Origin: Candidatus Omnitrophota bacterium
GTDB lineage: Bacteria > Omnitrophota > Gorgyraeia > Gygaellales > Profunditerraquicolaceae
Length of the DNA: 64,000 nt
Reading direction: 5' to 3'
NCBI GenBank assembly: GCA_025453395.1
Contig: JALOQK010000003.1
Location: 82,711-146,710, forward strand
The notes beneath the pieces were generated by a model, which had not been told where the DNA came from, ran no database searches, and saw nothing but the letters and a program-made list of their open reading frames with translations. Shown here in pieces: positions 9,114 to 64,000 of this stretch. The position numbers were made by a program, and so were the translations under genes. Every line of letters begins with the position of its first letter. Position 1 is the first letter of the stretch.

Positions 9114-9117
9114 AAAC

Positions 9118-10239: not shown

Positions 10240-10253
10240 CAAGGAGACAGATT

Positions 10254-11219: not shown

Positions 11220-11237
11220 CCCTTCGCCAATACCGGC

Positions 11238-11978: not shown

Positions 11979-11981
11979 AAT

Positions 11982-13142
11982 ATGCCTAAGGCCAGAATTC
12001 TATACATAATTACTAAACTTGAATTAGGCGGGGCGCAGAAACAACTGCTTAATCTTATTGACCTGTTAGACAAAGATAGGTTTGAGGTTTTTTTGTTTAC
12101 CGCCCAAGAAGGATATCTTTTGGGCCGGGCCAAGGCAATCCCCGGGGTTAGATTGTATTTATCGCGTTTTCTGGAAAGGCCGGTAAACCCGCTTAAAGAT
12201 ATCCGCGCCTTATTTGAAATACGCAAGTTTATCTTTGAGAATAAAATAGATATTGTGCATACCCACAGTTCCAAGGCCGGGATATTGGGCCGTTTTGCCG
12301 CCTGGATTTCAGGCGCGCCTTTTATTATCCACACTGTTCACGGATGGAGCTTCAACTGTTATCAAGTGTTTCCCCGGCGCGCTGTTTTTATTCTTTTGGA
12401 GCATTTTTGCGCGCGCCTGACGCGGGCTATCATTTGTGCCTGCAAAAGCGATCTGGAAAAAGGCCGCGGGTTTAACGATAGAGGTAAATATTATTTGATT
12501 CCATACGGCTTGTCCTTGGAAGATTTCGCGCCTTCTGACGGAAGAAAGGCAAAACAAAAACAGGGCATAAAAGATGATAAGCTTGTTATCGGGATGATCG
12601 CTTGTTTTAAGCCGCAGAAAGCCCCGCTTGATTTTGTTAAAGCAGTCAATATTTTTAAAGGGCAAGGCGGGGTTGCTAAATTTATTTTAATCGGAGATGG
12701 GGCCTTGCGCGGCAAGATAGAAAGGAAGATCAAAGAATTAAATCTTCAGGATGATATTTCACTCTTGGGCTGGAGAGAAGATATTGCAGGCTTAATCCAG
12801 GCTATGGATATTTTTGTTTTGACTTCTCTCTGGGAAGGGCTGCCGGTATCTGTTTTAGAAGCCATGGCAGCCTCCAAGCCGATAGTTGCCACAAATACCG
12901 GAGGCATAAGAGAGGTCCTTCGAGATGGAGAAAATGGATTTTTGGTCAAGCCTCAAGACGCTTTCGGTATCGCGAGAGGCTTAAGAGTCTTGGCCGATGA
13001 TGTTTTTTTGCGTGAATCTTTCGGCAAAGTTTCATTTTCTATCTCGCGATCTTTTCTTTCCCATAAAGAAGTTGCGGAAAAACATATGAAGCTGTATGAT
13101 AGTTTTATACAGGAGGGGGAATATGGCCCAAGTAGAAATTAA
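11982..13142 (+). CDS. Glycosyltransferase, GT4 family (GT-B fold)
   Basis: N-terminal 'ILYIITKLELGGAQKQLLNL'. C-terminal 'EGLPVSVLEAMAASKPIVATNTGGIREV' (E-X7-E type motif). Confidence 0.8.
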   Translation: MPKARILYIITKLELGGAQKQLLNLIDLLDKDRFEVFLFTAQEGYLLGRAKAIPGVRLYLSRFLERPVNPLKDIRALFEIRKFIFENKIDIVHTHSSKAGILGRFAAWISGAPFIIHTVHGWSFNCYQVFPRRAVFILLEHFCARLTRAIICACKSDLEKGRGFNDRGKYYLIPYGLSLEDFAPSDGRKAKQKQGIKDDKLVIGMIACFKPQKAPLDFVKAVNIFKGQGGVAKFILIGDGALRGKIERKIKELNLQDDISLLGWREDIAGLIQAMDIFVLTSLWEGLPVSVLEAMAASKPIVATNTGGIREVLRDGENGFLVKPQDAFGIARGLRVLADDVFLRESFGKVSFSISRSFLSHKEVAEKHMKLYDSFIQEGEYGPSRN

Positions 13143-14049
13143 GAATTTGATAGACAATATCGGCAAGGTTATTATCGGCAAGGATGAAACAGTAAAGTTG
13201 TTGTTGGTGGGGCTTTTGACAAATGGGCATATCTTAATAGAAGATGTCCCCGGGACGGGTAAAACCATGCTTGCCCTGGCCTTGGCAAAGTCCATACAGG
13301 CGGATTTTAAACGCATTCAGTTTACTCCGGATTTGCTTCCATCAGATGTTACAGGGGGTTTTATTTATAATTCAAAGACAGGGGAATTTGATTTCCATCA
13401 AGGCCCGGTATTTACTAATATACTTTTGGCGGATGAAATAAACCGTACTACTCCCCGGACGCAGTCAGCCCTTTTGGAGTGTATGCAGGAAGCAAAGATT
13501 ACTTTAGAGGGGAAAACCTTTAGCCTGCCTAAGCCGTTTATGGTTGTGGCTACCCAGAACCCCATTGAGTATCAAGGCACATATCCGTTGCCCGAAGCGC
13601 AGATAGACAGGTTTTTGATGTTGGTGCGCATGGGTTATCTTTCTCCTGAAGATGAAGTTAAGGTAATCTCCGGGCAGCAAAGACAGCACCCCATAGAATC
13701 TTTAAGCGCGGTAATGGAGACGTCAAGGCTTGTTGCTTTGCAGGAAGAGGTCAAGAAAATAGAGGTTTCTATCCATCTGTTGCAATACATTACCCGGCTT
13801 GTTTCTGCTACCCGCAAAAACGATTCTATAAAACTTGGGGCCAGCCCCCGCGCATCCATCGCGCTTATGAAAGCCGCTGCCGCCTGGGCTCTTTTAGAGG
13901 GGAGAAATTACGCTATACCCGAAGACGTGGTATTCTTGCTGCCCCATATTTTAACGCATAGGCTGATCCTGCATCCCAAGGTTTCTATTGCCGGGAAAAA
14001 TACCCAAGATATCATCAAGGAATTAGTGCATTCCGTAGCCATCCCTTAA
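13123..14049 (+). CDS. MoxR-family AAA+ ATPase
   Basis: 'GHILIEDVPGTGKT' Walker A, 'LLADEINR' Walker B, 'VVATQNP'. Typical MoxR length. Confidence 0.85.
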   Translation: MAQVEIKNLIDNIGKVIIGKDETVKLLLVGLLTNGHILIEDVPGTGKTMLALALAKSIQADFKRIQFTPDLLPSDVTGGFIYNSKTGEFDFHQGPVFTNILLADEINRTTPRTQSALLECMQEAKITLEGKTFSLPKPFMVVATQNPIEYQGTYPLPEAQIDRFLMLVRMGYLSPEDEVKVISGQQRQHPIESLSAVMETSRLVALQEEVKKIEVSIHLLQYITRLVSATRKNDSIKLGASPRASIALMKAAAAWALLEGRNYAIPEDVVFLLPHILTHRLILHPKVSIAGKNTQDIIKELVHSVAIP

Positions 14050-14055
14050 GAGAAT

Positions 14056-15288
14056 ATGGCGCGCCTATTTATTAAGAAGTGGATTTTTATAGGGGTTTTA
14101 ATTCTGGCCATGCCGATAATCGCTCTTAAAACCGGCATAGCCTTTTTTTATTTTTCTTCGTGGTTTCTTTTGTTTTTTATCCTGGGCAATATCTTCTGGG
14201 TAGTTTTTTCTTTTGTCTTGCTGGATGTCCAGATAAAACGGCAATTTTTTCCTACCGCGGTAGAAGGCGAAACCATAGAAGTGCAAGTATCTATAAAGAA
14301 TAAAAGTCTTCTGGGGGCCTATAATATTTTATTTCAAGATAACTGTCCGTGCGGGCGTCATGGCCAGGCAGAAAAAAATATGCCTGTTTGGCATATCCCC
14401 GCGCAGTCGTGGTTCTATGTAAAATACAATCTTTATTGCCTGCGCAGGGGTAAATATACGCTTGGCCCTTTTCATGCGTATGTGCTTGATCCTTTTGGGA
14501 TCTTTTATTTGACTGTGCATCTGCCTGTTTACGACGATTTATATGTTTATCCGCGCATTTTCCGGATTGAGAAATTCCCCGAGCTTGCCAAAGGAAATGC
14601 CCCTTGGTTTGGCATTCAGACCACTCGCTCCATCGGCGAAGACGATGAATTTTTTGGGTTAAGAGAATACCGTGCCGGTGATTCCCTGCGTAGGGTGCAT
14701 TGGATGTCTACCGCGAGGATGAATCAGGTTATTGTCAAACAGTTCCAGCGCCAGGGGTTTTGCCGGGCTACGATTATGTTCAGCCTTTTGCATAAGTATG
14801 ACCTTTCTTCGGGGGAAAAAAGGCTTTCAGACTATATAGTCAGCTTAGCCGCTTCTATAACAAAGTATTTACTGGATCAGGGCGTCTCTGTTGAGCTTGT
14901 GGCGCATACCGGTTCATATGCGCGCATAGATTTCAATAAAGGAAATGAGCATATGCAGGAGATCTTAAAGTTTTTGTCAGTTGCTCAGGCAGACAGCCAA
15001 ACAAGCGTTGTTGAGCTTTTTGAAGGGCATCGGCGTTTTTTACAGCATGATTCCACGGTGATCATTATTATGCCGGATGCCGAATGGGAGATCCTAAGCG
15101 CTGCTGTGCCGCTTGATAAAAGGGATTTTTCTTTTATACCCTTAGTCCTTTTATCCGCCTCTTTCTTAAGTAATTTGTCCACAGAGCGCGTTATCAAAGA
15201 TTCACAAATAAAATTATTAAACAGCACCACGTTTTCTCCGGTTGTTTTGCCCTGCAACCAATATTTTGAGGAGGCGTTTTTGCGCTAG
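14056..15288 (+). CDS. DUF58-domain protein (MoxR partner, vWA-like)
   Basis: 'EFFGLREYRAGDSLRRVHWMSTAR' is the DUF58 signature. N-terminal TM helices. Confidence 0.8.
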   Translation: MARLFIKKWIFIGVLILAMPIIALKTGIAFFYFSSWFLLFFILGNIFWVVFSFVLLDVQIKRQFFPTAVEGETIEVQVSIKNKSLLGAYNILFQDNCPCGRHGQAEKNMPVWHIPAQSWFYVKYNLYCLRRGKYTLGPFHAYVLDPFGIFYLTVHLPVYDDLYVYPRIFRIEKFPELAKGNAPWFGIQTTRSIGEDDEFFGLREYRAGDSLRRVHWMSTARMNQVIVKQFQRQGFCRATIMFSLLHKYDLSSGEKRLSDYIVSLAASITKYLLDQGVSVELVAHTGSYARIDFNKGNEHMQEILKFLSVAQADSQTSVVELFEGHRRFLQHDSTVIIIMPDAEWEILSAAVPLDKRDFSFIPLVLLSASFLSNLSTERVIKDSQIKLLNSTTFSPVVLPCNQYFEEAFLR

Positions 15289-15294
15289 GCGGAT

Positions 15295-17070
15295 ATGGAA
15301 GAAAGAGAATCTTTATACGAACGCGTTATTATGACAGCGATGGTGTTGTCGGCTTGCATTCTCTTGCGATCCGCCCATTCTTTTCTTATTGCTGCCGGAG
15401 CGGCAGTTTTTTTGGCAGGGAATATTTACCGCATTTTTTTTATTTCTTCAGATTCCCGCGGTTTAAGAAACCTTATTACCGCGCTGTGCATAGGGATAAT
15501 TTTATTGCAGGGGGCAGCTATTGTTAATTCCCACCTTCTCTATAAAGAGATCATCGGGATAGGCGCGCAGACTTCGGTATTATTAATGATGGTCTTAAGT
15601 TTTGCCTCATCTTCCCGCAAACATAAAGGATACATAGAGATATTAAGCCTTACGCTTATTCTTTGTTGCGGTATTTTTATACAAAAATACACAAATCTAG
15701 ACATATTTCTTTTAGGGGTTTATCTTTTGGCAGGATGCCTATTAATGCGCATAAGGTTTTATCGTATCTGGGGGGCAGAGGACAGTTCCGCCTCCGCCCT
15801 TTTTAATTCTTCCGGGTTTTTGGCGATGCTTTTTGTGCTATTGATTTCTTGCGCAGGATTATTTTTGACCGCTAAATTATCAGCAGGCAGATATTTACAT
15901 GGAGGGGTTTTTGCCGATATCGGTGAAGCGGGGGATATTATTGATCCCAAGGATTATTATAAGCTGCAGTCTGTTTTGCTGGATAAAATGCTTCCTCTTG
16001 TCTCTGAAGGTTATTACCCGAAGGACAAATTGTCGCTTTTAGGCATGCTAAATATTTTAGTGCGCGATGATGCCGTGCTTGTGGAAGTAGACCGCGCAGA
16101 GCAGGGGCTTGTTTCATTTTTGCGCACTCCCGGCTGGGGGGTGGAAGAAGACAAGAATCAGGCGCTTCAGATCTTGAAATCTTATATCCAGGAGAAAATA
16201 AGCAGAAAGATTTCCGCTTCGCAGGAACAGATAAACGAACTTTTTAAATTACAGGCGCCTTTTTCCCTGGGGCAGAGAATAAAGCAATCTTCTTTGGTGC
16301 AAGAATTAAAACAGGCTTCTTCGCTTTCCCAGGTTGAGAGTTTTCATAAGCAGGCGGAAGATTTCATAAATAAATCGTCTTTGTTTGCAGAGGCTGTTGA
16401 TAAGGCAGGCGAAGCCTTAAACGATATCAGGTCATGGAAGGAGTTTGAAATAAAGCACCAAACAAGATATGATGCAGATTTTGCCCCCGGAAAAGAACAG
16501 GCCCCAGGGCAAAATCCAGCTTCGGGCTTGTTGGAACCAACTGCGCCAGAGCCGGCTCAACCTTTGCCCATAGAAATACCTGCCCCGCAGGCCGGTACCG
16601 GATCAGTTTTAAGCCATGGCAGCCTTTGGGCGATTGCGCCTGTGTTCGCGCAGGCATTTTTTATTCTTTTGGCCGTTTTGCTCGCCTTAATATATATACT
16701 TGCGCAAATAGAAAGGTTAAACATCAAATCTCTTGCAGGCCAGCCCAGGCAGTTTATCTTGCGGCTTTATGCGCACTTGCGCCAGGCCTTATTTTACTCC
16801 AGGGCAGTTTACCAAGAAATCCTTCCGCCGCTTTATTACGCATCTAAAATAGAGCAGCAGATGGACTTAAAGGATAATTCTTTATTCCGCTTAAGCTCTA
16901 AATTTGAAGAAGCCAGATACAGCTCGCATATTTTAAGCCCTGAAGACGCAGAGGCCTGCCTTAGTGATTACAATTATTTTTTAAGGGCGTTCTTAAGGAA
17001 ATGTTCCATAAGCACCAAGCTTGTTTTTTATTGCAGGATGTTTTTCTCGCGCAAGCCGGTGTCCATATAA
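15295..17070 (+). CDS. Polytopic membrane protein, third member of the MoxR-DUF58 module. Has a Pro-rich linker and a possible DUF4129-like C-terminus.
   Basis: Multiple hydrophobic segments. 'APEPAQPLPIEIPAPQ' linker. Position immediately after the MoxR/DUF58 pair. Confidence 0.35.
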   Translation: MEERESLYERVIMTAMVLSACILLRSAHSFLIAAGAAVFLAGNIYRIFFISSDSRGLRNLITALCIGIILLQGAAIVNSHLLYKEIIGIGAQTSVLLMMVLSFASSSRKHKGYIEILSLTLILCCGIFIQKYTNLDIFLLGVYLLAGCLLMRIRFYRIWGAEDSSASALFNSSGFLAMLFVLLISCAGLFLTAKLSAGRYLHGGVFADIGEAGDIIDPKDYYKLQSVLLDKMLPLVSEGYYPKDKLSLLGMLNILVRDDAVLVEVDRAEQGLVSFLRTPGWGVEEDKNQALQILKSYIQEKISRKISASQEQINELFKLQAPFSLGQRIKQSSLVQELKQASSLSQVESFHKQAEDFINKSSLFAEAVDKAGEALNDIRSWKEFEIKHQTRYDADFAPGKEQAPGQNPASGLLEPTAPEPAQPLPIEIPAPQAGTGSVLSHGSLWAIAPVFAQAFFILLAVLLALIYILAQIERLNIKSLAGQPRQFILRLYAHLRQALFYSRAVYQEILPPLYYASKIEQQMDLKDNSLFRLSSKFEEARYSSHILSPEDAEACLSDYNYFLRAFLRKCSISTKLVFYCRMFFSRKPVSI

Positions 17071-53187: not shown

Positions 53188-53317
53188 TAAAGTAAATCTA
53201 ACACAGCAGCCCTAAGATGTAAAGGGAATTTAGGATTGTAAGGGAAATGTAAAATCAGCTTAAAAGGTATTGCAATTGTCTTTGGAAAGAGGTATATTTT
53301 GTATAAGGAGAATTATC

Positions 53318-56300
53318 ATGGAAAAGATTACCGGGAATAAAGGGATGGTTCTTATTGTTTCTCTTTTCTTGGCCATTGTAATCGCTACCATGGCTGGCAT
53401 ATTATATTTTCGCGCGGTTAACGAATCGCGTTTGTCAGTAATAAGCGACGCGGCGCTTCAGGCTTTTTACGAAGCAGAGGCGGGACTGGCTTTTGCTTAT
53501 GCCGCGGAAAAAAAGAGCAATTTTACCTGGTTTACCCACGCAGATAAGATTACAAAGGCAAGCGCAGTTTCGGTTCCTTCTGGCGTTCCGGGCGCAATTG
53601 ATAACTCAAGCGGTTGTTATGTTGTATCAGGGCGTAATTTTAAAGTCAAAACTTTCCCAGAGAAAAAAGGTACTGTTGAAACCGGAATTGTGGTTGTGCT
53701 GTCACAGGCTACTATTAACGGGGTTACCCGTACTTTAGAGCATCGCATTGGCCAGAAATCCGCTTATCAATATTTTTTCTTCTTTCCTGAAGACCACACC
53801 TTTGATACCGCCACTTACGACGGACGCAACTTTGGCGGGCTTCATGTGAATGGCGATATCAACCTTATCAACCATCCGACCTTTGCTTTCTTAACTGAAT
53901 TAAGCAGCGGTTCAAATACTTCCCATAAAGGCTATATCCGAAGGCCGCTTTTAGAGGCCTTTACAGCTTTAAGCGGCAACAAGGATTATAATATTTCAGC
54001 TTCTAGCGTCCAAGGGCTTCCATGGCAGCTTTATACAAATATTAACTATCGCACTTCAAACGGAGATATCGGTTCAGGAACATATACTACTTTTAAGATT
54101 GGCGATATCAACAGCCCCGCAACAATAAATATCCCAGAATATATGGGCGGGCAGTGGTCATTTGATAAATATACCAAGGCGGGTTCGCCCACAACTTATA
54201 ATATTACGGAAACCTCTTTGAAGAATGCCGGATTGCGAGAGATTACTTCTTCCGCAGGAGATGTTTCCTTGTTTGATAATAACAAATCTATCAATATCAA
54301 CTTTGGGGGTTCACCAGAAAGCCTTACTGAGAAAGAAATGTTTAAGAGGATATACAACCTTCCGGATGATCAGCAAACCAGTTATTGGAGCCAATATTGG
54401 GATCAGTGGAAAGTCAATCATAATTCCGATTATTCAGCTTATCATACTTCTGGAGTGTTAACAGCGGGAGATGATTGGAAAAGAAGATTATTTTGGGCAA
54501 CTTATGACTGGAAAGATTACAATTCTGACGGTATCCCTTACGGAATAAACCGGGAGTGGTGGGAAGATTTAAGTTATGGAGACGATTATTACGATTATGG
54601 CCCTAATGGCACATCCCCGGCCTGCGTGGTAGACCACGACACAGGATTGTCATTAGATAAATATTTCTTGAACACAGAAGAACAGGGTACGCAATGGAAA
54701 AATTTGTTAGATGCAAACAACCTTGATGAGGCCGCAGATAATAAAACCCTTGTTTTAGACAGAAGCCAGGGCGGCAAAGAAATCAATGCCGGGGATATCA
54801 TTAGCAATTATGATACTTCAAGTTATAGTGTTTTAGAAGGCCAAGCGCGCAACAGCGGGATTTATATGGGGGTTAAGACTGATCAGGCCTATAAGGATTG
54901 GCAGATTTTGGCTGTGACTGCCAGCATGAAGGCAAATTCTGCGCTTGATAAAGCGAATGCCAAATTTTCTGAATGCACGGTAAAATATAATCAGACCGCA
55001 TGTTCTTCAACTTCCGGAGGCTCAACATCAGCAGAAGCCGTTGCTTGTTGGTCAGATTATAGCGGCCTATACCAAAAATATACTCAAGCTTATGGCGAAT
55101 ACACGCAAGTTATGCAGGATAAGCCTCCTACTGTTTGGTGGGAAGGTAAAAATTCAAATCTTCTTAAGGATTGCGTTTCTGAAACTCCGTTTTATAACGC
55201 GCAAAACCCTGCCCGGGGCAGCGATGGGAAATATTCTCCCAGCCATATCCTTACCATTGATTTAGCTAAGCTTAAAAGCAATATTGACCAGAAAGGTTCG
55301 GGTTTTAACGGGATCATCTATATAGATTTGGACGCTTACCAATGGCAAGAGAATACTGTGGATGACGGAACTAAAGTTTCAGATGAAAAGAGCGCTATTG
55401 GAGTAATGTTTGTTAATGGAGAGCGCCTTCCGGATCAGGGTTTAAGCATAGTTACTAAGCATAATGTTTACGTTAAGGGGGATTTTAACCTTGACCCGGA
55501 TGGAGATTCTAGCCGTAACCGCGCTGCCGACCCCTCAAATGTTTTAAATACCGTTGCGAATAATAAAGGCCTTGATGTTGATGATTTTAAATGGCGCCCA
55601 GCGGAAATAATCACCTACAGGCAGGTATACTTTCTATCGAATGATTTCAATCTGCCAAAAACCATGCCTTTATTGGATACACAATATGGGCAATTTTACG
55701 ATGAATATTATAATAAGACTCGAGCGGATGTGGTTACGCATCCTTTATATGGCGCACCGGATACTGCCACAAGCGCTTCTGCCAGTTGGATGCCTGCGTA
55801 TAATAGCTCGGATTCTTCATGGGGGAAGATAAATGATTGGTTTTCTCTTACCGGGATAACCCCCCCAGCTTCATGGGATGTAAACTGGCTTGATGGCAAT
55901 CAGCTGAACCAGATGGATTCCACCCCGGATTTGTTAACTGGCGTAAACGGGAAACAATACCCCAAATGGGATAATTACAGCTGGAGTGATTCTTATGTCT
56001 ATAAATTAGACGATGGCTCAGGCGGGACAACATATATCATGCGTCAGGATTTAAAGTATCAACTTTATAGCAAAGTACTGAGTGCCTATAGAAATCAATA
56101 CGCTTACAATGTTAGTAACTCGCCCGCGGCATACCAGATGGTTGATGTTGTGACCCGCCCGGAAAGCTATATTTACAATACGGCAGTGATTACTCCCTAT
56201 GCCCCAGAGGGGTATAGTTTAGAGCGCTGGAACAATAAGAATCGCGTGATTAACGGCGCGTTTATTCAGCTGCCTTCAGGTATGCAACTTCCCGTTCCCG

Positions 56301-56476
56301 TTGAATCTTATAAGGATACTGGTTCCGGAGCAATAAGGTTTAACCAGCCCAAGAAAACATTTAATTATGAGTCTCGCTTTGGTAAAAACGGGGATCCTTC
56401 TGATCAGCCCCACGCAAGGTTATTATTTGGCATGGATTCAACATGGAGGGAAATAAATAATGCCGCGTTTCAATAA
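53318..56476 (+). CDS. Giant PilX-N-domain minor-pilin-like protein (about 1050 aa), a putative pilus tip adhesin
   Basis: N-terminal 'KGMVLIVSLFLAIVIATMAGILYFRAVNESRLSVISDAALQAFYEAEAGLAFAYA' matches the PilX_N pattern (hydrophobic helix + 'QAFyaAEAGl'). The remainder is N/Y/W/D/S/T-rich with no TM. Confidence 0.55.
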   Translation: MEKITGNKGMVLIVSLFLAIVIATMAGILYFRAVNESRLSVISDAALQAFYEAEAGLAFAYAAEKKSNFTWFTHADKITKASAVSVPSGVPGAIDNSSGCYVVSGRNFKVKTFPEKKGTVETGIVVVLSQATINGVTRTLEHRIGQKSAYQYFFFFPEDHTFDTATYDGRNFGGLHVNGDINLINHPTFAFLTELSSGSNTSHKGYIRRPLLEAFTALSGNKDYNISASSVQGLPWQLYTNINYRTSNGDIGSGTYTTFKIGDINSPATINIPEYMGGQWSFDKYTKAGSPTTYNITETSLKNAGLREITSSAGDVSLFDNNKSININFGGSPESLTEKEMFKRIYNLPDDQQTSYWSQYWDQWKVNHNSDYSAYHTSGVLTAGDDWKRRLFWATYDWKDYNSDGIPYGINREWWEDLSYGDDYYDYGPNGTSPACVVDHDTGLSLDKYFLNTEEQGTQWKNLLDANNLDEAADNKTLVLDRSQGGKEINAGDIISNYDTSSYSVLEGQARNSGIYMGVKTDQAYKDWQILAVTASMKANSALDKANAKFSECTVKYNQTACSSTSGGSTSAEAVACWSDYSGLYQKYTQAYGEYTQVMQDKPPTVWWEGKNSNLLKDCVSETPFYNAQNPARGSDGKYSPSHILTIDLAKLKSNIDQKGSGFNGIIYIDLDAYQWQENTVDDGTKVSDEKSAIGVMFVNGERLPDQGLSIVTKHNVYVKGDFNLDPDGDSSRNRAADPSNVLNTVANNKGLDVDDFKWRPAEIITYRQVYFLSNDFNLPKTMPLLDTQYGQFYDEYYNKTRADVVTHPLYGAPDTATSASASWMPAYNSSDSSWGKINDWFSLTGITPPASWDVNWLDGNQLNQMDSTPDLLTGVNGKQYPKWDNYSWSDSYVYKLDDGSGGTTYIMRQDLKYQLYSKVLSAYRNQYAYNVSNSPAAYQMVDVVTRPESYIYNTAVITPYAPEGYSLERWNNKNRVINGAFIQLPSGMQLPVPVESYKDTGSGAIRFNQPKKTFNYESRFGKNGDPSDQPHARLLFGMDSTWREINNAAFQ

Positions 56477-56867
56477 GAATAAGGGTTTTAGTTTGATTGA
56501 AATCCTTGTTGCCTGCGTGATTATCGCGGCATCCGCAGGAGCTTTTATGCTGTCTTTAGGCCAGACAGCTAAGGCAACCGGAACATTTGATGATACCGAT
56601 ATAGCGCTTAATGCCGCCCAGTCTAAGATGGAAGAGGTCGGAAATGAAGATTTTAGCACCGATAATATAGCTAATATTATATCAGCATACAATAATAAAT
56701 ATTTCGCGGTATCCGGGCTTTCCGCGCCAAACAATTGGCCCAACCCAATACTTGTGACTATAAGCCAGATCAATAATGATTTATATGATGTTTTGGTTAA
56801 AGTAAGTTGGCAGGCCAGGGGAAGGACATATCTTAAGCAATTAAAAAGGACATTCGCTTTGAAATAA
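56460..56867 (+). CDS. Type IV pilin / pseudopilin with prepilin N-terminal cleavage-methylation motif
   Basis: 'NKGFSLIEILVACVIIAASAGAF' = G|FxLIE prepilin peptidase site plus hydrophobic helix. Confidence 0.75.
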   Translation: MPRFNKNKGFSLIEILVACVIIAASAGAFMLSLGQTAKATGTFDDTDIALNAAQSKMEEVGNEDFSTDNIANIISAYNNKYFAVSGLSAPNNWPNPILVTISQINNDLYDVLVKVSWQARGRTYLKQLKRTFALK

Positions 56868-56868
56868 T

Positions 56869-57486
56869 ATGAAGAATAAGGGGTTTACTTTAGTTGAAGT
56901 ATTTATTTCTGCGGGGATAATGTTATTGGTTGTTGGGACAGCCTATACTATTATCTTGACAGGAAATTTTTCTATGAACACGCAGGAAAACGAAATTAAT
57001 GCTCAAAATTCCGCGCAGCTTGCCTTATTTCAAATAGCCCAAGATTTACGCCTTGCAAGCGGAGTTAAGGTTTGGGTTTCTGACGGTTTTGGGACTACAC
57101 AGGGCACACCAGCAGTCGCCTATAAAGTAGTAAACTTTCAAATACCTGTGGGCAGCTTTGAGTCTGCGATAGCTCTGGATAGCAATAATTACATTTCTTG
57201 GGGCAGTGAAAGGCTAAGCTTAAGCGATGATGGCACGGGTAATTATATCGCTTATAGCCTCGATAACCAGGGCCAGATCATAAGGACAGTTTATAGCGCG
57301 TCTGGCACAGTCTATACCACTAAAAAGACAAGGATTGTGGCAAGGAACATTTCTAGCCTGAATTTCACGCGCAGCTTATCAGAAAATTTACTGCAGATTC
57401 AAATTACTTCTAATATTCTAGCCAGCAAGCAGTCCGCGCCCATACAAAAGACGGTGTCCACGACAGTATTATTAAGGAACGGTTAA
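56869..57486 (+). CDS. Minor pilin (PilW/GspJ-like) with prepilin N-terminal motif
   Basis: 'NKGFTLVEVFISAGIMLLVVGTAY' prepilin motif. 'LALFQIAQDLRLAS' resembles PilW-type minor pilins. Confidence 0.7.
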   Translation: MKNKGFTLVEVFISAGIMLLVVGTAYTIILTGNFSMNTQENEINAQNSAQLALFQIAQDLRLASGVKVWVSDGFGTTQGTPAVAYKVVNFQIPVGSFESAIALDSNNYISWGSERLSLSDDGTGNYIAYSLDNQGQIIRTVYSASGTVYTTKKTRIVARNISSLNFTRSLSENLLQIQITSNILASKQSAPIQKTVSTTVLLRNG

Positions 57487-57613: not shown

Positions 57614-57892
57614 ATGGATTGGGATATAGAGGTAAAAGAGCGCCTAAAGCAGATGACTGCGAAGATTCCGGTTTTTCACCGGCACATTACCCAAAACGCG
57701 GTTACGCTTAAGGCGGAAGAAAACGCCCGCCAAAGAAACTGCCCCAAGGTGGAAGAAGTGGATGTCTTGGGCGCTTTTTTTTCGGATGTGCCTTCGCCAT
57801 TCTACAGTATGATGGTCAGGCTATTAGAGCAAAGCGGTTTTGACTATAAAAAATACGGTTTTCCTAAAACGAAACCCAAACTTATGGAGTGA
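57614..57892 (+). CDS. PCP_red-domain small protein (the domain is otherwise C-terminal in protochlorophyllide reductase subunit B; standalone form of unknown function)
   Basis: 'WDIEVKERLKQMTAKIPVFHRHITQNAVTLKAEENARQRN' matches the PCP_red pattern W..eA...l..iP.fvR..v....E..Ar. Confidence 0.5.
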   Translation: MDWDIEVKERLKQMTAKIPVFHRHITQNAVTLKAEENARQRNCPKVEEVDVLGAFFSDVPSPFYSMMVRLLEQSGFDYKKYGFPKTKPKLME

Positions 57893-57901
57893 TAACGCAC
57901 T

Positions 57902-57921
57902 CCTGCCTGCCGGCAGGCAGG
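57902..57921 (+). terminator. Perfect 20-nt GC palindrome CCTGCCTGCCGGCAGGCAGG followed by a weak T-rich tract; terminator or attenuator between the PCP_red gene and the reductase gene
   Basis: Read directly. The downstream tract 'taagtttgaggttgagttt' is only weakly U-rich. Confidence 0.4.
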
Positions 57922-57940
57922 TAAGTTTGAGGTTGAGTTT

Positions 57941-58000
57941 ATCCCGACGAATATGCCAAAATTATGGAACAGAATTTTGGCATAGTTTATGAGTCGGGAT
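57941..58000 (+). promoter_or_regulatory. Nested inverted repeats ATCCCGAC-[ATGCCAAAATT-loop-AATTTTGGCAT]-GTCGGGAT forming a roughly 60-nt stem-loop 20 nt upstream of the reductase start
   Basis: Read directly. Outer arms are 57941-57948 / 57993-58000. Inner arms are 57953-57963 / 57973-57983. Confidence 0.45.
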
Positions 58001-58019
58001 AGAGAAGCAATAAAATAGA

Positions 58020-59030
58020 ATGAAAATTGGGGTTATTGGCGCCGGGGCAATAGGCAACCTTGTTGCCGCGTATCTTAAATTAAAAGAAGAAGATGTTTTT
58101 CTTGCTGGCACAGCATCGTCTATTGATGCCATAAAGAAAAATGGCCTTGATGTTTCTGGTGTGCGCGGAGATTTTCATCTGTCTTTAGATTGCGGATTAT
58201 TGCTTAATGAAAAAAAAGACCTTGTAATACTGGCGGCCAAGACACAGGATTTAAAAGAAGCCCTTAACGCCAACTTAGATTTTATTAAAGGCGCTTTATT
58301 GGTTACTACGCAAAACGGCGTTGCCGCAGATAGTATTGCTGCTGGTTTTGCCCCCAAGGAAAATATTATCTCAAGCATTGTTATGTTTGGCGCTACTTAT
58401 TTAGAGCCGGGAAAAATAGTGCATAATTTTGAAGGAAGCTGGATTTTAGCAGGCGCCTTTGGCAAAAATAATAAAAAAACCCCGCAGGTATCAGAGGTTT
58501 TAAATAAAATATTCCCTTGTTTAGTAAGTGAAGATATCCGGGGGATGAAGTATTTAAAGATCTTTGTTAACGCCAACAATTGTATCCCGGCGGTATTAGG
58601 CCAGAGCATGCAGGAAGCGTTCTCTGACCTAGAAATAAGCAGAATCAGTATTGCTATTTGGAAAGAGGCCATGGATGTGGTTTCGCGCTCTAATATAAAA
58701 CTTGTTTCTCTGCCGGATTTTCCTCTTGAAAGGCTAGTGCGTATGACCCAAATGCCGATTTCCGAAGCCGCGCGCATTTATTCCGGGATCATGGCGTCTT
58801 TAAGCAAACAGCCCGTTTATGGCTCGATATTGCAGAGTATTAAACGTAAACGCGCTTCCGAAATAGATTACATTAATGGCGAATTCGTTTCTCTGGCAAA
58901 AGTCCATAATTCACAGGCGCCGCTTAATGAAATGCTGGTTAGTATGGTGCACAGGGTAGAAAAAACAGGGGATTTCTTTTCAAAAGAAGAGCTTTTGAGT
59001 AAAACCAAAGATTTAGTGGAGAAGATATGA
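58020..59030 (+). CDS. Ketopantoate-reductase-family (ApbA/PanE-like) NAD(P)H-dependent reductase
   Basis: 'MKIGVIGAGAIGNLVAAYL' Rossmann motif. ApbA_C-like C-terminal half ('EIDYINGEFVSLAK'). Confidence 0.65.
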   Translation: MKIGVIGAGAIGNLVAAYLKLKEEDVFLAGTASSIDAIKKNGLDVSGVRGDFHLSLDCGLLLNEKKDLVILAAKTQDLKEALNANLDFIKGALLVTTQNGVAADSIAAGFAPKENIISSIVMFGATYLEPGKIVHNFEGSWILAGAFGKNNKKTPQVSEVLNKIFPCLVSEDIRGMKYLKIFVNANNCIPAVLGQSMQEAFSDLEISRISIAIWKEAMDVVSRSNIKLVSLPDFPLERLVRMTQMPISEAARIYSGIMASLSKQPVYGSILQSIKRKRASEIDYINGEFVSLAKVHNSQAPLNEMLVSMVHRVEKTGDFFSKEELLSKTKDLVEKI

Positions 59031-59620
59031 GCGAAGTCAATACACCGTTCCCAAAACTAAGGTTAACCGTTAGCGCTGTTTATGGTGAATGTTACCATGG
59101 CTACAAAAAGGGCGACGAAATAATTTTAGAGGATTTTACCCACCCGCCAAAGCATTTTTGTCTGGGCCTGGCGCATGCCCTTTTTCCGGTAATTTACGCG
59201 TTAAGTTTCGGAGCAAGATTTCCCTTTCGTGACAATCAAAGGTCTTTATTGGTGACCTGCCCTGATGGTGGTAAGCTTGAATTTAAAGCTGAAATCTTAA
59301 ACAAAGATGGCAAGATAGAAGAAATGCCTAAGGATCCGAATTTCAAAGGGCCAAATCCAAAGAAGATGATAATTGAGGTGGTTGAGGCAAAAGGAAAATG
59401 TACTTTTGGTTATAAAGTAGGCGATAAATGGGAGACTTGTGGCTTGAAGTGTATTCCCGGATTTTGCGGAGCAGCATTTCATACTGCCTTTCCGGCATTG
59501 TTCGCGCTTAATTTTGGCGCCAAGTTCTTTTTTATGCAGGATCCAAATTCTATTGATACTGTAACTTGTCCCGATGGCGGGAACATTATATTTAAGGTAA
59601 AAAGGATTGAAGAGAAATAA
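59027..59620 (+). CDS. Tandem-duplicated TIGR04076-like Cys-rich protein (two copies of about 95 aa, each ending in CPDGG)
   Basis: Internal repeat: 'CYHGYKKGDEI...HPPKHFCLGLAHALFPVIYALSFGARFPF...LLVTCPDGGKLEFK' versus 'CTFGYKVGDKW...CIPGFCGAAFHTAFPALFALNFGAKFFF...DTVTCPDGGNIIFK'. Confidence 0.5.
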   Translation: MSEVNTPFPKLRLTVSAVYGECYHGYKKGDEIILEDFTHPPKHFCLGLAHALFPVIYALSFGARFPFRDNQRSLLVTCPDGGKLEFKAEILNKDGKIEEMPKDPNFKGPNPKKMIIEVVEAKGKCTFGYKVGDKWETCGLKCIPGFCGAAFHTAFPALFALNFGAKFFFMQDPNSIDTVTCPDGGNIIFKVKRIEEK

Positions 59621-59622
59621 TT

Positions 59623-60885
59623 ATGAATAAAAAACGCGTTGTGATTACAGGTTTAGGGGTTATATCCCCCAATGGCATTGGAAAAGATAATGTCTGGCAG
59701 GCGATGGTAAATGGAAAGTCCGCGGTGCGTAGGGTGGATAGTTTTGATGTTTCGGTTTTTAACACCAAGATTGCCGCCGAGGTTAGAGATTTTGATCCTT
59801 TTAAATTGGGCCTAACCCATGACGAGGCCATGCGTATGGACCGCTATGTGCAGTTTGGGGTTGTGGCAGCTGATATGGCGATAAAGGATAGTAAATTAGA
59901 TTTTTCTAAAGTAAACCTAGAGCGCGTGGGGGTGTGCCTTGCCAATGCCATCTGCGGCACAAAATATATGGAAGAAGAATTCGCCCTTGTTACTGATGAC
60001 GGGAGAAATCCCATTGATCCTTTAAAGGTGCGCCCTGATTTGTATGATGCCGCGATGTTTAATACTCCCTCCATAGAGATTTCCGCGCGTTATAAATTAA
60101 AAGGTTTCTGCAACACTCTTTCTACCGGTTGCACCGCCGGGACAGACTCGCTTGGATTCGGTTTAGAGGCCATTCAGGACGCAGAACAGGATATTATGGT
60201 CTGTGGCGCGGCCGAGGCGCCGATTACGCCGATTACCTTTGGGGCTTTTGACGTGGTCAATGTCTTGTCTGTGCATAATGATATTCCGGAACAGGCCTCC
60301 AGGCCGTTTGATAAGAAACGTAACGGCTTTGTGATTTCCGAGGGGGCAGGGATACTTATCTTGGAAGAATTAAGCCACGCCTTAAAAAGAAACGCGCATA
60401 TTTACGCGGAGGTATCGGGTTTTGGCACAAGCTGTAACGCCTTTCATATGACTGACCTGCCTTCTGACGGAACAGCTATGGCAAATTGTATTAATCTTGC
60501 CCTTGCCGATGCTTCTATGAAACCGCAGGAGATCGATTACATAAATGCCCATGGCTCTTCCACGCGCATGAACGATATCTTTGAGACTGCGGCCTATAAA
60601 ATGTCATTTGGGGATTACGCCTATAAATTGCCGGCAAGTTCCTTAAAATCCATGATCGGCCACCCGTTAGCTGCGGCAAACGCCATAGAGTTAGTGGTTT
60701 GTTGTTTTATTTTTAAGAATAATATTCTTCCTCCGACAATAAATCAAGAGGAGCGCGACCCTTTATGCGACTTGGATTATGTTTCAAACGTGGCACGGGA
60801 AAAGAAAGTAAATACAATATTAAAGACTTCAAGCGGTTTTTCAGGGATACATTCGGCCTTAATTGTGAAGAGGTTCAAAGAATAA
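59623..60885 (+). CDS. Beta-ketoacyl-ACP synthase (KAS I/II / type-II PKS KS-alpha-like), catalytically complete
   Basis: 'RVVITGLGVISPNG'. Active-site Cys in 'LSTGCTAGTDSL'. 'NAHGSST' His and 'MIGHPLAAANAIE' His are both present. Confidence 0.8.
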   Translation: MNKKRVVITGLGVISPNGIGKDNVWQAMVNGKSAVRRVDSFDVSVFNTKIAAEVRDFDPFKLGLTHDEAMRMDRYVQFGVVAADMAIKDSKLDFSKVNLERVGVCLANAICGTKYMEEEFALVTDDGRNPIDPLKVRPDLYDAAMFNTPSIEISARYKLKGFCNTLSTGCTAGTDSLGFGLEAIQDAEQDIMVCGAAEAPITPITFGAFDVVNVLSVHNDIPEQASRPFDKKRNGFVISEGAGILILEELSHALKRNAHIYAEVSGFGTSCNAFHMTDLPSDGTAMANCINLALADASMKPQEIDYINAHGSSTRMNDIFETAAYKMSFGDYAYKLPASSLKSMIGHPLAAANAIELVVCCFIFKNNILPPTINQEERDPLCDLDYVSNVAREKKVNTILKTSSGFSGIHSALIVKRFKE

Positions 60886-60886
60886 A

Positions 60887-62119
60887 ATGGATAGAAAAAT
60901 AGCAATCACAGGTTTAGGGATAGTCGCTCCTTCGGGAATAGGCCGTAGGCAGTTTTGGGCAAACATTAAATCCGCAAGAAGCTTTGTGAAAAAGATCAAC
61001 CGTTTTGACGCTTCTCGGTATCCATCGCATATTGCCGGGCAAATTGATGAGCTTGATAAGTATAGCAATGTCTCCGAGCGGCTTCTAAAAAAGATGGATG
61101 CCTTTTCCCACATGGCGTTGATTGCTTCGGAGCTGGCGTTAGAGGATGCCAAGATTGATATAAAAAAAGAAGACCCGAATTTAGTGGGGATATTTTTGGG
61201 CAATGCCATTGGCGGCTGGCTTTATGCCGAAACAGAATTAAGGGACCTGTATATTGAGGGAAGAGACGGAGTTTCTCCTTATATGGCCTCAGCCTGGTTT
61301 CCGGCTGCGCCGCAGGGCCAGGTGTCTATTTATTACGGGATAAAAGGTTTTTCTAAGACCGTTGTTTCTGACCGCGCCAGCTCCCTTGACGCGTTAGGCT
61401 ATGCCAGAAAAACCATTTCTAAGGGCAAGCTAAATATGATTTTAGCCGGAGGCATGGAAGCGCCGGTTACTCCTTATGCTCTTTTATGCTGCAATACTTA
61501 TGGCGGGCTTTCCGTAGAGAATGATAACCCGGAAACAGCCTATAGGCCATTTGATAAGAAAAGAAGCGGGTTTGTTATTGCTGAAGGAGCCGGGATAGTG
61601 GTGTTAGAGCCGCAGGAAAGAGCTTGCAAGCGAAATGCTCCGGTTCAGGCCTATATCTGTGGTTATGGCTCTACCTGCGACGCAGTAGACAGGATTAATC
61701 CGGATAAAGAAGGCAAAGAATTAGCCCGCGCGATTAACATGGCTTTATCTGATGCTAACTTTTCTCCTGAAGATATTGATTATATAAGCCTTGATGGCTT
61801 AGCAGTGGGCGTGTGGGATGATTCAGAAATTAAAGCCCTAAAAGAGGTTTTTGGAAAGCGTATGGAAAAAATACCAGTTAGCTGCCCCAAGAGCATGTTT
61901 GGAAACTTATTGGGCGCATCTGGGGCGGTGGACCTTATCGCAACAATTTTAGCTATGGAGAATAATTTGATTCCGCCTACCATAAATGTAGAATCTTGCG
62001 CCTATGAAGGGATAAACTTGATTTGCAATAAGGCAGTTCCAGCAGAAATAAAAAAAGCGCTTATTATCTCCCGCGGCAGAGGCGGGATAAATTCAGTCTT
62101 GGCAATAGAGAAAGCATAA
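60887..62119 (+). CDS. Ketosynthase-like protein lacking the Cys-His-His triad (KS-beta / chain-length-factor-like partner)
   Basis: Thiolase fold ('IAITGLGIVAPSG'). The Cys position reads 'VVSDRASSLDA' with no Cys. The 'HGT' position reads 'SLDGLAVG'. The 'GH' position reads 'FGNLLGASGA' (His to Asn). Confidence 0.7.
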   Translation: MDRKIAITGLGIVAPSGIGRRQFWANIKSARSFVKKINRFDASRYPSHIAGQIDELDKYSNVSERLLKKMDAFSHMALIASELALEDAKIDIKKEDPNLVGIFLGNAIGGWLYAETELRDLYIEGRDGVSPYMASAWFPAAPQGQVSIYYGIKGFSKTVVSDRASSLDALGYARKTISKGKLNMILAGGMEAPVTPYALLCCNTYGGLSVENDNPETAYRPFDKKRSGFVIAEGAGIVVLEPQERACKRNAPVQAYICGYGSTCDAVDRINPDKEGKELARAINMALSDANFSPEDIDYISLDGLAVGVWDDSEIKALKEVFGKRMEKIPVSCPKSMFGNLLGASGAVDLIATILAMENNLIPPTINVESCAYEGINLICNKAVPAEIKKALIISRGRGGINSVLAIEKA

Positions 62120-62227
62120 AGCGTAAAACGAAAAATTAAAAACCATAATTCAAAACTCAAAATTTTTAATTTTACACTATAGTTTTTCACTTTGAGCTTT
62201 TAGTTTTACGCTAAAAATGGAGGATTT

Positions 62228-63688
62228 ATGAAGATTTTATTTGTGATGCCTAAAGTTGGAGCCTGGGCTACCCACGGAATACATCGTTCGCCTAACCAGC
62301 TTTACGCGCATTGGGCCGCCTATGTCCGCGAAAGAGGCTATAAGGATATCGCGGTTATAGACGGAAAAGCTGATCAGACCCCTATGGATGAATTAGTCCA
62401 AAAGGTTAAAGTTATAAATCCCGATGTGGTAGTTATGGGTGAGCAGCTGCATGGTTATGGCGGATACGGGGTCCTAAGGCATTTTAAAGAAGCAGCGCAA
62501 AAGATTAAAAAGGCGCTTCCCAGGACTAAAATCATCTTAGGCGGCTTGTGGTATTCAGCTATGCCAGTACCCACCCTTGAGGAAAACCCGGAAGTAGATT
62601 TTATTGTCATGGGCGAAGAAGAATCCTTTGGCGATTTAATAGAAGCAATAGACAAAAAAACGGATCTTAAGAATGTAGGAGGGGTTACTTCTCGCGTAGA
62701 CGGACAAATTGTGATGGGGCCGCATAAACCATTAATGAAAGACTTGGATAAATTGCCTTTGCCGGCCTATGATTTGTTTCCCATGGATAAATATGTGGGC
62801 CACACTTATTGGAAACCATTTGTGGATATGGTAACAAGCCGCGGTTGTCCTTCGGCGTGCACATTTTGTTATGAGTGGGATCAATATGATCCTCGCCATC
62901 CTTCGGATTTTTTGACTTGGCGCGCCAAATCTCCAGAGAGAGTCATTGAGGAGATGGAAGTCCTGCAGAATAAATATGGGGTAAAGGTAGTAGTTATCCA
63001 GGATGATAATTTTAATGTCGACCCGGAACGGGTAAGAAAATTTTGTGAATTAAAAAAGAAGAAGAAAATTGATATTAAATGGGTTTCCTTAGGAAGAGCC
63101 ATTGACTGGGTGAATTGTGAACAAGTATTGCCATTAATGAAAGAAACCGGGCTTTTTATGGGAGTTTTCGGCATTGAGGTAACTACACAGTCAGAGCTTA
63201 AGAAAATCGCCAAGGGTATTACTCTTGATCAGATCCAGAAAACTATTGAGCTTTTGCGCAAACACGATATCGCCATTGTCGCGGATATTATGATGGGTTT
63301 TGATTATGACACCGAGCAGATTATTAAGAAGCGATTTGAATTTACCGATCAGGTTGATCCGGATATTTTGTGGGTGGGCTACGTAACCCCAGCTCCTAAT
63401 TCTCCGATGTGGAGGATCGCCATGAAGAAAAACTGGATCGATCCTAAGAAAGTTGATTTCAGCACTTGGGATTTTCTGCATCCGGTTATTCCTACGGATC
63501 ATCTTACTACCGAAGACTTAGGCAGGCTTGGCTCATGGTGCATGAGAGAATTTTTCTCTAAGCCCGGAAGAATACATAGGATCATGGAAAGCAATTTTGA
63601 TCCTCTAGCGAAGTTATGCTTTAAAGATGTTATGGATGGGATTAATAAATGGGAAAACGCAGCCACTAAAGGTGAAGTGCAGATATAG
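62228..63688 (+). CDS. Cobalamin-binding-domain radical SAM enzyme (class B radical SAM)
   Basis: N-terminal B12-binding-like Rossmann domain. 'SRGCPSACTFC' = CxxxCxxC radical SAM cluster motif. Confidence 0.8.
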   Translation: MKILFVMPKVGAWATHGIHRSPNQLYAHWAAYVRERGYKDIAVIDGKADQTPMDELVQKVKVINPDVVVMGEQLHGYGGYGVLRHFKEAAQKIKKALPRTKIILGGLWYSAMPVPTLEENPEVDFIVMGEEESFGDLIEAIDKKTDLKNVGGVTSRVDGQIVMGPHKPLMKDLDKLPLPAYDLFPMDKYVGHTYWKPFVDMVTSRGCPSACTFCYEWDQYDPRHPSDFLTWRAKSPERVIEEMEVLQNKYGVKVVVIQDDNFNVDPERVRKFCELKKKKKIDIKWVSLGRAIDWVNCEQVLPLMKETGLFMGVFGIEVTTQSELKKIAKGITLDQIQKTIELLRKHDIAIVADIMMGFDYDTEQIIKKRFEFTDQVDPDILWVGYVTPAPNSPMWRIAMKKNWIDPKKVDFSTWDFLHPVIPTDHLTTEDLGRLGSWCMREFFSKPGRIHRIMESNFDPLAKLCFKDVMDGINKWENAATKGEVQI

Positions 63689-63730
63689 CCCGCAGTTATG
63701 GACAGGTAAGAACTCAAAAAGAGGAGTAAG

Positions 63731-63961
63731 ATGGATACAAAAGCAAAAATAAAAGATACCTTTGTGAAGCTACTTAAAGTAAAGCCAGAAGAATTAAAAG
63801 ACGAAGTGTCTTTGGTAAATAGCATTGGAGTAGATTCAACCGAGATGGTGGAAGCCTTGATTGCCTTGGAGAAAGTCTTTAATACCAAGCTTGGGCCCAA
63901 AGAGATTACCAAGAATTCTACCATAAGCGAAATCGAAAAAGTTATTCAGTCCAAACTATAA
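63731..63961 (+). CDS. Acyl carrier protein
   Basis: 76 aa. 'IGVDSTEMVEALIALE' contains the phosphopantetheine-attachment DS motif in a helix II-like context. Confidence 0.7.
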   Translation: MDTKAKIKDTFVKLLKVKPEELKDEVSLVNSIGVDSTEMVEALIALEKVFNTKLGPKEITKNSTISEIEKVIQSKL

Positions 63962-64000
63962 GGCGGCATCTGATGCGCATAATTGACTTGAGCCTTCCCA

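Follow-up and report, generated by a model that had tools for sequence, protein, structure and literature searches.

[quoted passage not shown] In the classical actinobacterial system for actinorhodin (act), the inactive partner or chain length factor (CLF; ActI-ORF2, PDB 1TQY chain B) is encoded right after its catalytic ketosynthase (KSα). Non-actinobacterial CLFs have already been described as clades apart from the classical ones (PMC6638757, PMC7693217). Among them, AntE from the type II PKS that makes the anthraquinone AQ-256 in Photorhabdus luminescens (PDB 6SMO chain C) carries an Asp where the active-site Cys would be (PMC6638757), and its cluster displays the KS-CLF-ACP-TcmN-OxyN architecture, which is that of the ancestral non-actinomycete type II PKSs (PMC7693217). 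E. coli has served as the host for expressing and purifying KrKSCLF of Ktedonobacter racemifer (bioRxiv 10.1101/2020.05.18.102780), and KS-CLF pairs are recorded for Candidatus Omnitrophica, among other phyla, in a catalogue of 2023 (PMC10132072).

Here we analyse two abutting ketosynthase genes, KS1 and KS2, in a metagenome-assembled contig of a Candidatus Omnitrophota bacterium (the window, that is, the whole stretch of 64,000 nucleotides under study; Table 1). On the basis of the results below, we propose that KS2 is the non-catalytic partner subunit (CLF, KSβ) of an aromatic-type type II PKS, a reading to which we assign a probability of about 85%. The assignment is supported by purifying selection, by the affinities of both proteins to KSα and CLF, by the abutting genes and by the composition of the cluster, all in favour of the sequence-only reading of this DNA, which had taken KS2 for a CLF-like non-catalytic partner and not for a product of decay.

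Results

KS2 has lost the catalytic triad

Both PF00109 and PF02801 are present in KS2 (410 aa), and the protein aligns with KS1 from end to end (34% identity, E = 9e-90, 13 gap positions), as the sequence-only reading had seen. In the pairwise alignment, for which the codons of the three replaced residues were checked, STGC170TAG of KS1 is matched by VSDR163ASS of KS2, NAH310GSS by SLD303GLA, and IGH347PL by FGN340LL. The earlier reading had thus correctly recognized the exchange of the Cys context for DRASS, leaving the residue at the Cys position, Arg163, unnamed, and that of the GH His for Asn340. It was also right in that the first catalytic His has become an Asp in a DGL motif, but the motif of KS1 at this place is HGS and not HGT. 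Alignment of KS2 to FabF crystal structures puts the same Arg, Asp and Asn at the catalytic positions and restores neither the Cys nor either His; no alternative alignment with a Cys and two His was found.

As a FabF (KAS II), KS2 was ruled out: its triad is Arg/Asp/Asn, and it scores 374 bits against the TIGR03150 model, for which the cut-off is 493.75.

Table 1. Positions of the KS1 and KS2 features and of the surrounding cluster genes in the window.
Feature	Position	Strand	Basis
Conserved 92-aa protein at the 5' end of the cluster, no known function	57614..57892	+	
ApbA/PanE-type NAD(P)H oxidoreductase, conserved in the cluster	58020..59030	+	
Tandem TIGR04076-domain protein, 197 aa, conserved in the cluster	59027..59620	+	
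KS1, catalytic ketosynthase (KSα), 420 aa, Cys170/His310/His347 intact	59623..60885	+	
KS1 TAA stop, 1-nt spacer, KS2 ATG	60883..60889	+	abutting genes
KS2, probable chain length factor (KSβ), 410 aa, Arg163/Asp303/Asn340 in place of the triad	60887..62119	+	conservation, diagnostic blocks
KS2 residues 95-172, nearly invariant block with the AWFPAAPQGQ CLF signature and Trp111/Ala114/Leu118	61169..61402	+	orthologue columns
Arg163 codon, active-site Cys position (act CLF Gln, AntE Asp)	61373..61375	+	
Asp303 codon, first catalytic His position (act CLF also Asp)	61793..61795	+	
Asn340 codon, second catalytic His position (act CLF Arg)	61904..61906	+	
Arg398 codon, for the Phe of the C-terminal GFGG loop; RGRGG parallels act CLF RGRWG	62078..62080	+	
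B12-binding radical SAM enzyme, BchE/HpnJ-like, conserved in the cluster	62228..63688	+	
Acyl carrier protein (ACP), 76 aa, GVDST phosphopantetheine site	63731..63961	+	
PF04199 (OxyN-type) cyclase, gene start, continues past the window end	63973..64000	+	
SRPBCC cyclase, ketoreductase (KR), 129-aa protein, Amidohydro_2	downstream of the window on the contig		

KS2 is conserved and retains the ketosynthase fold

Having lost the gating Phe as well as the whole catalytic triad, KS2 might be regarded as a decaying duplicate of the upstream ketosynthase that has no function of its own. The orthologues speak against this. A genome scan with one genome per species yielded at least 80 loci from distinct MAG assemblies, nearly all of them labelled Omnitrophota, across which KS2 is 73-79% identical. 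Among the loci listed, 80 of 80 species representatives carry KS2 as one uninterrupted ORF of full length. The replacing residues Arg163, Asp303, Asn340 and Arg398 are present in all of 120 KS2 orthologues (protein clusters, 76-81% identity). In the 72 species for which both genes are complete, KS2 has as many invariant columns as its catalytic partner (162 of 411 compared with 164 of 422 in KS1), and the median dN amounts to 0.164 for KS2 and 0.138 for KS1. As dS is saturated in most orthologue pairs (median above 2.4), dN/dS was taken from 29-38 closer pairs with unsaturated dS and is about 0.08 for KS2 and 0.045 for KS1. Purifying selection on KS2 is almost as strong as on its catalytic neighbour, and because of these conservation data decay is excluded as an explanation.

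The predicted structure of KS2 points in the same direction. A diverse alignment was needed for modelling: with 41 close orthologues alone, AlphaFold2 reached a pLDDT of only 62.6, compared with a pLDDT of 95.5 and a pTM of 0.95 for the diverse alignment. The latter model superimposes on FabF with a TM-score of 0.96 and on act CLF with 0.94. As determined from the model and from Pfam, the complete secondary structure of a ketosynthase and both thiolase halves are kept, in agreement with the earlier claim that the fold is conserved despite the total loss of the triad. The strict invariance of Arg163, Asp303 and Asn340 could mean more than structural filler.

Diagnostic regions of KS2 are CLF-like

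Whole-length searches of the PDB do not discriminate FabF from CLF for KS2, FabF structures scoring slightly above act CLF in both sequence and fold; fragment queries were used for this purpose. With residues 128-210, comprising the former active site, the first matches are AntE (6smo_C, 6.3e-13) and act CLF (1tqy_B), and the FabFs rank behind. With residues 68-154, AntE is found at 2.2e-25, compared with 5.6e-12 for the best FabF. The C-terminal fragment, in contrast, is more FabF-like than CLF-like. Since the whole-length scores slightly favour FabF, it is the diagnostic regions, together with the tree and the genomic surroundings, that carry the CLF assignment of KS2.

The CLF-like blocks contain an AWF(P/Y)A..GQ motif that is absent from FabF and KSα. 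AntE is the best solved match to both blocks and shares with KS2 the motif GGW...AWFPAA.QGQ; it differs by its Asp in place of Arg163 and by its length of 371 residues, parts of the C-terminal half being missing, whereas KS2 is full-length. Act CLF is 37% identical to KS2 over 405 residues. As derived characters the two share RFDxSRYP..AGQID, AWF, the change of the first His to Asp and the RGR(G/W)G loop; a retained Lys (PK motif) and the location of the gene immediately after that of the KSα are also common to both. The two proteins differ at the Cys position (Gln in act CLF, Arg in KS2) and at the second His position (Arg and Asn, respectively). By analogy with the solved structures, the block of residues 95-172 would correspond to the dimer interface and the polyketide tunnel. 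Within it, Trp111, Ala114 and Leu118 of KS2 align with the act CLF gatekeepers Phe109, Thr112 and Phe116, where AntE has Trp, Ile and Val. The partner KS1 shows the complementary affinity, its top PDB matches being act KSα (1tqy_A, 7.7e-111) and AntD (6smo_B, 1.9e-104), with every FabF scoring lower.

Two other kinds of inactive partner were considered and ruled out. ApeC, the CLF of aryl polyene or highly reducing type II PKSs, whose clusters include dehydratases, is truncated and has a single thiolase domain (PMC8358021); KS2 keeps both halves, and no dehydratase was found in its cluster. An AmcG-type cyclization factor, which lacks ketosynthase motifs and some secondary-structure elements and is accompanied by an AmcH-type adenylating enzyme, is incompatible with the full ketosynthase secondary structure of KS2 and with a cluster that contains no adenylating enzyme; KS2 matches only the AmcF model and not that of AmcG, and its 151 bits fall far short of the cut-off of 325.

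Arg often replaces the Cys in the sampled non-actinobacterial CLF clade

Relatives of KS2 were sought exhaustively, without a profile, among 1.8 billion representative proteins, and a neighbour-joining tree was calculated from the domains of representative proteins. KS2 falls inside one clade of Cys-less proteins with the WF motif. The clade includes a protein from a Deltaproteobacteria-labelled MAG, which is 60% identical and carries Arg/Asp/Asn as well, the CLF of Clostridium beijerinckii and C. puniceum (46% identical, Arg/Glu/His), that of Ktedonobacter racemifer (Arg/His/His), an Archangium protein (Arg/Asp/His) and also one classical Gln-type CLF. In the same tree, KS1 pairs with the clostridial KSα, and the two halves of a natural KS-CLF fusion, P0122 (869 aa), fall one into the KS clade and the other into the CLF clade.

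At the Cys position, 16 of roughly 30 representatives of the KS2 clade have Arg and 3 more have Lys, and Arg is the commonest state in the sampled non-actinobacterial CLF clade. Of these 19 Arg- or Lys-type proteins, 13 possess an acidic residue, Asp or Glu, in place of the first His, a pattern that would fit a buried ion pair in a vestigial active site. Across the wider clade the two His positions are occupied by His, Asp, Glu, Asn or Ala. The Gln of the classical (actinobacterial) CLF or KSQ type is absent from KS2, as the earlier reading had pointed out. Given the Asp of AntE and the 16 Arg-type representatives without Gln, this residue marks the classical subgroup and does not define CLFs as a whole. 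The suggestion that KS2 represents a distinct CLF lineage holds insofar as the protein belongs to a non-actinobacterial group apart from the Gln type; the group itself, however, was already recognized, and Arg is common in it.

We found no discussion of an Arg at the CLF Cys position in the literature; the residue at this position goes unmentioned in the Ktedonobacter papers, in a 2025 review of type II PKSs and in a 2026 preprint on KS/CLF evolution. A search on the heterodimeric ketosynthase entry PDB 9S5H yielded nothing relevant.

The clostridial CLF, most likely ClrB of clostrubin biosynthesis as judged from the organisms and not from a published accession, shares the Arg at the Cys position (VADRASG), but its two His positions are taken by Glu and His, where KS2 has Asp303 and Asn340. 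Its partner ketosynthase is 45% identical to KS1. The likeness extends to the PF04199 cyclase (47%), the SRPBCC cyclase (43%), the Amidohydro_2 protein (34%) and TIGR04076-domain proteins, and in the type II PKS locus of C. beijerinckii a TIGR04076 domain is fused to an ACP. Three members of the Omnitrophota cluster were not seen in the clostridial locus, namely the B12 radical SAM enzyme, the ApbA-type reductase and the KR; conversely, that locus contains phosphopantetheinyl transferases (PPTases), DUF362 and DUF169 proteins and hydrolases as extras. The CLF of Ktedonobacter racemifer (38% identity) belongs to the same Cys-less WFPAAP clade and again has Arg at the Cys position (VSDRASG), but retains both His residues and the Phe of the GFGG loop that are lost in KS2 (Arg-His-Lys-His-Phe).

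KS1 and KS2 are part of a conserved gene cluster

The KS1/KS2 junction is consistent with translational coupling. Of 76 orthologous loci, 66 have the KS2 start between -11 and +4 nucleotides from the KS1 stop, and among the at least 80 species loci the two genes are neighbours wherever the contig extends far enough. They belong to a cluster of 12 genes, which begins with the 92-aa protein, the ApbA-type reductase, the tandem TIGR04076 protein, KS1, KS2, the B12 radical SAM enzyme and the ACP, and continues with the PF04199 (OxyN-type) cyclase, an SRPBCC (TcmN-type) cyclase, an SDR ketoreductase, a 129-aa protein and an Amidohydro_2 enzyme. The gene order is retained in essentially all sufficiently long loci from the at least 80 species, at 55-92% amino-acid identity, and the Deltaproteobacteria-labelled locus contains nearly the whole gene set. 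For a secondary-metabolite cluster, 73-92% amino-acid identity over at least 80 species is unusual.

The content of the cluster matches the ancestral non-actinomycete KS-CLF-ACP-TcmN-OxyN architecture. Compared with the ant cluster, as far as its description goes, the Omnitrophota cluster has in addition the B12 radical SAM enzyme, the TIGR04076 protein and the ApbA-type reductase, all of which go unmentioned there. Neither a dehydratase nor an enoyl reductase was seen in the cluster, and neither these nor a FabF occurs among 20 other ORFs scanned in the window. The lack of a dehydratase and an enoyl reductase argues for an aromatic over a highly reducing or lipid system, and the product of the cluster would accordingly be aromatic.

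We nevertheless considered that KS1 and KS2 act in a lipid pathway ('ladderane'-type, with a B12 radical SAM enzyme) or in a highly reducing polyene pathway, in which KS2 would be the length-setting partner for an unusual acyl chain. Ladderane-type clusters have been reported by antiSMASH in Omnitrophota MAGs (PMC9902471), conservation over at least 80 species resembles that of core metabolism, and KS2 is unusually FabF-like. The B12 radical SAM enzyme also gives a weak match to TIGR04072 ('lipid biosynthesis B12-binding/radical SAM protein'); its 80.8 bits are, however, far under the cut-off of 360, the BchE and HpnJ models score higher, and the enzyme stays under every NCBIfam cut-off. Besides the missing reductive enzymes, the cluster encodes two cyclases of the aromatic-PKS type. 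KS1 is nearer to the aromatic KSαs 1tqy_A and 6smo_B than to the polyene ketosynthase Iga11 (6kxd), and the nearest named relatives come from C. beijerinckii and C. puniceum, both makers of the aromatic polyketide clostrubin (PMC7693217). A lipid or polyene pathway is therefore very unlikely.

Discussion

We propose that KS1 and KS2, co-produced from abutting genes, would assemble into a KSα/KSβ heterodimer of the thiolase fold, as homologous pairs do. In such a complex, KS1 would carry out all Claisen condensations on the ACP of the cluster, and KS2 would contribute half of the dimer interface and seal the polyketide tunnel at its far end. The closure would be brought about by the block of residues 95-172 including Trp111, Ala114 and Leu118, which may thereby help to set the chain length, a role predicted by homology to known CLFs. 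Indirect support for the heterodimer and for a limit on chain length comes from the P0122 fusion and from the near-invariance of the interface block. The resulting poly-β-keto chain would be reduced and cyclised by the KR and by the TcmN-type and OxyN-type cyclases, and further tailoring may involve the B12 radical SAM enzyme, the ApbA-type reductase, the TIGR04076 protein and the Amidohydro_2 (decarboxylase-family) enzyme.

The most likely task of the invariant Arg163, Asp303 and Asn340 is to occupy the pocket of KS2 that is no longer used and to keep it stable. An ion pair between Arg163 and Asp303, if formed as the residue pattern suggests, probably has a structural role. Alternatively, KS2 could partner KS1 and at the same time use these residues for chemistry of its own, such as binding the carboxylate of malonyl- or acyl-ACP for decarboxylative priming, a function proposed for the CLF Gln, or directing cyclisation in the manner of AmcG. 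This idea draws on the strict invariance of the three residues and of Arg398, and on the non-actinobacterial CLF clade, in which the Cys position repeatedly carries a basic residue and the first His is then usually replaced by Asp or Glu. The cluster, moreover, has no FabH-type priming ketosynthase, and the Gln of CLFs has been tied to decarboxylation (PMC3691225, citing Bisang 1999). Partner subunits with roles other than that of a CLF do exist, as exemplified by AmcG of cispentacin synthesis (PMC10698177); the match of KS2 to the AmcF model and not to AmcG, itself far below the cut-off, is at odds with such a function. Known decarboxylation by ketosynthases requires both His residues, of which KS2 has neither, and the Arg-Asp pairing is what would be expected of a buried structural salt bridge. 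The variability of both His positions in the wider clade also argues against one conserved catalytic set. On balance, we regard chemistry by KS2 itself as improbable and favour the CLF with a vestigial pocket.

A broader version of this idea concerns the pathway as a whole. The cluster, in place of a sporadic antibiotic cluster of the ordinary kind, might encode a near-core pathway found throughout Omnitrophota and in a related lineage labelled Deltaproteobacteria. An ancestral type II PKS would there act together with a B12 radical SAM enzyme and TIGR04076 proteins to supply a cofactor, pigment or membrane component derived from an aromatic polyketide, with Arg163, Asp303 and Asn340 being catalytic or substrate-binding, for example in the recognition of a carboxylate during priming. 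In this combined form we consider the proposal improbable.

The identification of KS2 as a probable CLF changes little by itself, as Arg in place of Gln is common to other non-actinobacterial CLFs. It does illustrate that Gln is no defining feature of CLFs outside the actinomycetes and that a pair of a basic and an acidic residue is usual in the sampled clade. The cluster is of more interest than KS2, for it combines an aromatic PKS with a B12 radical SAM enzyme, a TIGR04076 protein and an ApbA-type reductase. The natural fusion ties TIGR04076 proteins to ACP-dependent polyketide synthesis. In at least 80 species of Omnitrophota, a phylum that has no cultured members, an aromatic PKS cluster of the ancestral type keeps its gene order and is strongly conserved, and both this cluster and the link to TIGR04076 are targets for heterologous expression.

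Conservation of the KS1/KS2 cluster in the Omnitrophota

The 12-gene cluster that encodes the catalytic ketosynthase KS1 and the chain length factor (CLF) KS2 keeps its synteny in essentially all of the 80 Omnitrophota loci listed (at least 80 species representatives), and the amino-acid identity of its proteins across these loci is 55–92%. Conservation of this degree is unusually strong and uncommon among polyketide clusters. Two species representatives, L012 and L071, carry a seemingly truncated KS1 reading frame together with an intact KS2, which could mean either that the assembly introduced a frameshift or that the gene is truly disrupted. One metagenome-assembled genome (assembly CAZOGI01) contributes the cluster on two contigs, L042 and L044; percent identities and offsets are identical for every gene, and the assembly has probably duplicated a single cluster.

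PDB searches returned moderate matches of KS1 and KS2 to two chains of the recently solved entry 9s5h. Its chains B and C are different 3-oxoacyl-ACP synthases of 413 and 412 amino acids, and the entry may represent another heterodimeric ketosynthase; a literature search retrieved no paper on it.

A related cluster labelled Deltaproteobacteria

Locus L085 (GCA_964580455.1), whose protein cluster is labelled Deltaproteobacteria, encodes a CLF that is 60% identical to KS2 and has in common with it Arg163, Asp303, Asn340 and Arg398 (KS2 numbering). The gene set is likewise almost that of the Omnitrophota, comprising a B12-binding radical SAM enzyme, ApbA, tandem TIGR04076, KS, CLF, ACP, two cyclases, MFS and Amidohydro_2, but additionally includes two aldehyde:ferredoxin oxidoreductase genes along with a flavoprotein of the amine-oxidase type. 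By position, its MFS_1 transporter gene corresponds to a gene for a 374-residue multi-pass membrane protein, located between the SRPBCC cyclase and the ketoreductase (KR) in many orthologous clusters, and the SRPBCC–KR gap measures roughly 1.1–1.6 kb in many of the 80 loci. The contig of the window lacks this gene, and its SRPBCC and KR genes overlap.

Coordinates of the features discussed
Feature	Locus	Position
Hexokinase and PAC2-family genes	window	7719–9113 and 10254–11219
1068-aa protein and two prepilin-like proteins	window	53270–57486
12-gene cluster	window	57614–64000 and beyond
12-gene cluster	L001 (window's own contig)	6728–16616
Tandem TIGR04076 protein, 197 aa	window	59027–59620
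B12-binding radical SAM enzyme	window	62228–63688
Post-cluster genes	L001	17511–21233
Post-cluster genes	L085	17447–19220
Deltaproteobacteria-labelled cluster	L085	1–19242
374-aa membrane protein	L011	12300–13424
Truncated KS1, aligned residues 1–320	L012	6937–7999
Truncated KS1, aligned residues 1–252	L071	1649–2642
TIGR04076 genes	L003 (C. beijerinckii)	9260–9787 and 13656–13946

Other genes of the window

Elsewhere in the window, a 1068-residue protein with no Pfam match precedes two small proteins with prepilin-like N termini (KGFSLIEIL and KGFTLVEV); it may be an adhesin associated with a type IV pilus or pseudopilus. Amid ordinary bacterial housekeeping genes lie those for a hexokinase with Pfam matches to Hexokinase_1 (E = 6e-63) and Hexokinase_2 (E = 5e-71) and for a member of the PAC2 family, two families more familiar from eukaryotic and archaeal genomes.

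Radical SAM and TIGR04076 proteins

For the B12-binding radical SAM enzyme of the cluster, the best-scoring models were BchE, at 214 bits with a cut-off of 481, and HpnJ, and the enzyme missed every family cut-off; C-methylation and ring chemistry are possible reactions. Downstream of the cluster, Omnitrophota and Deltaproteobacteria-labelled loci encode a PNP_UDP_1 nucleosidase and an IF-2B-family protein resembling methylthioribose-1-phosphate isomerase, preceded in L001 by a TIGR04076-containing protein of 301 residues and a SPASM-type radical SAM enzyme. This group may serve to salvage radical SAM by-products.

The 197-residue protein of the cluster consists of two TIGR04076 domains in tandem, a family of unassigned function. 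In the type II PKS locus of Clostridium beijerinckii, a TIGR04076–ACP fusion gene directly follows the CLF, and a second TIGR04076 gene stands alone. These arrangements link the TIGR04076 family to ACP-bound polyketide chemistry.
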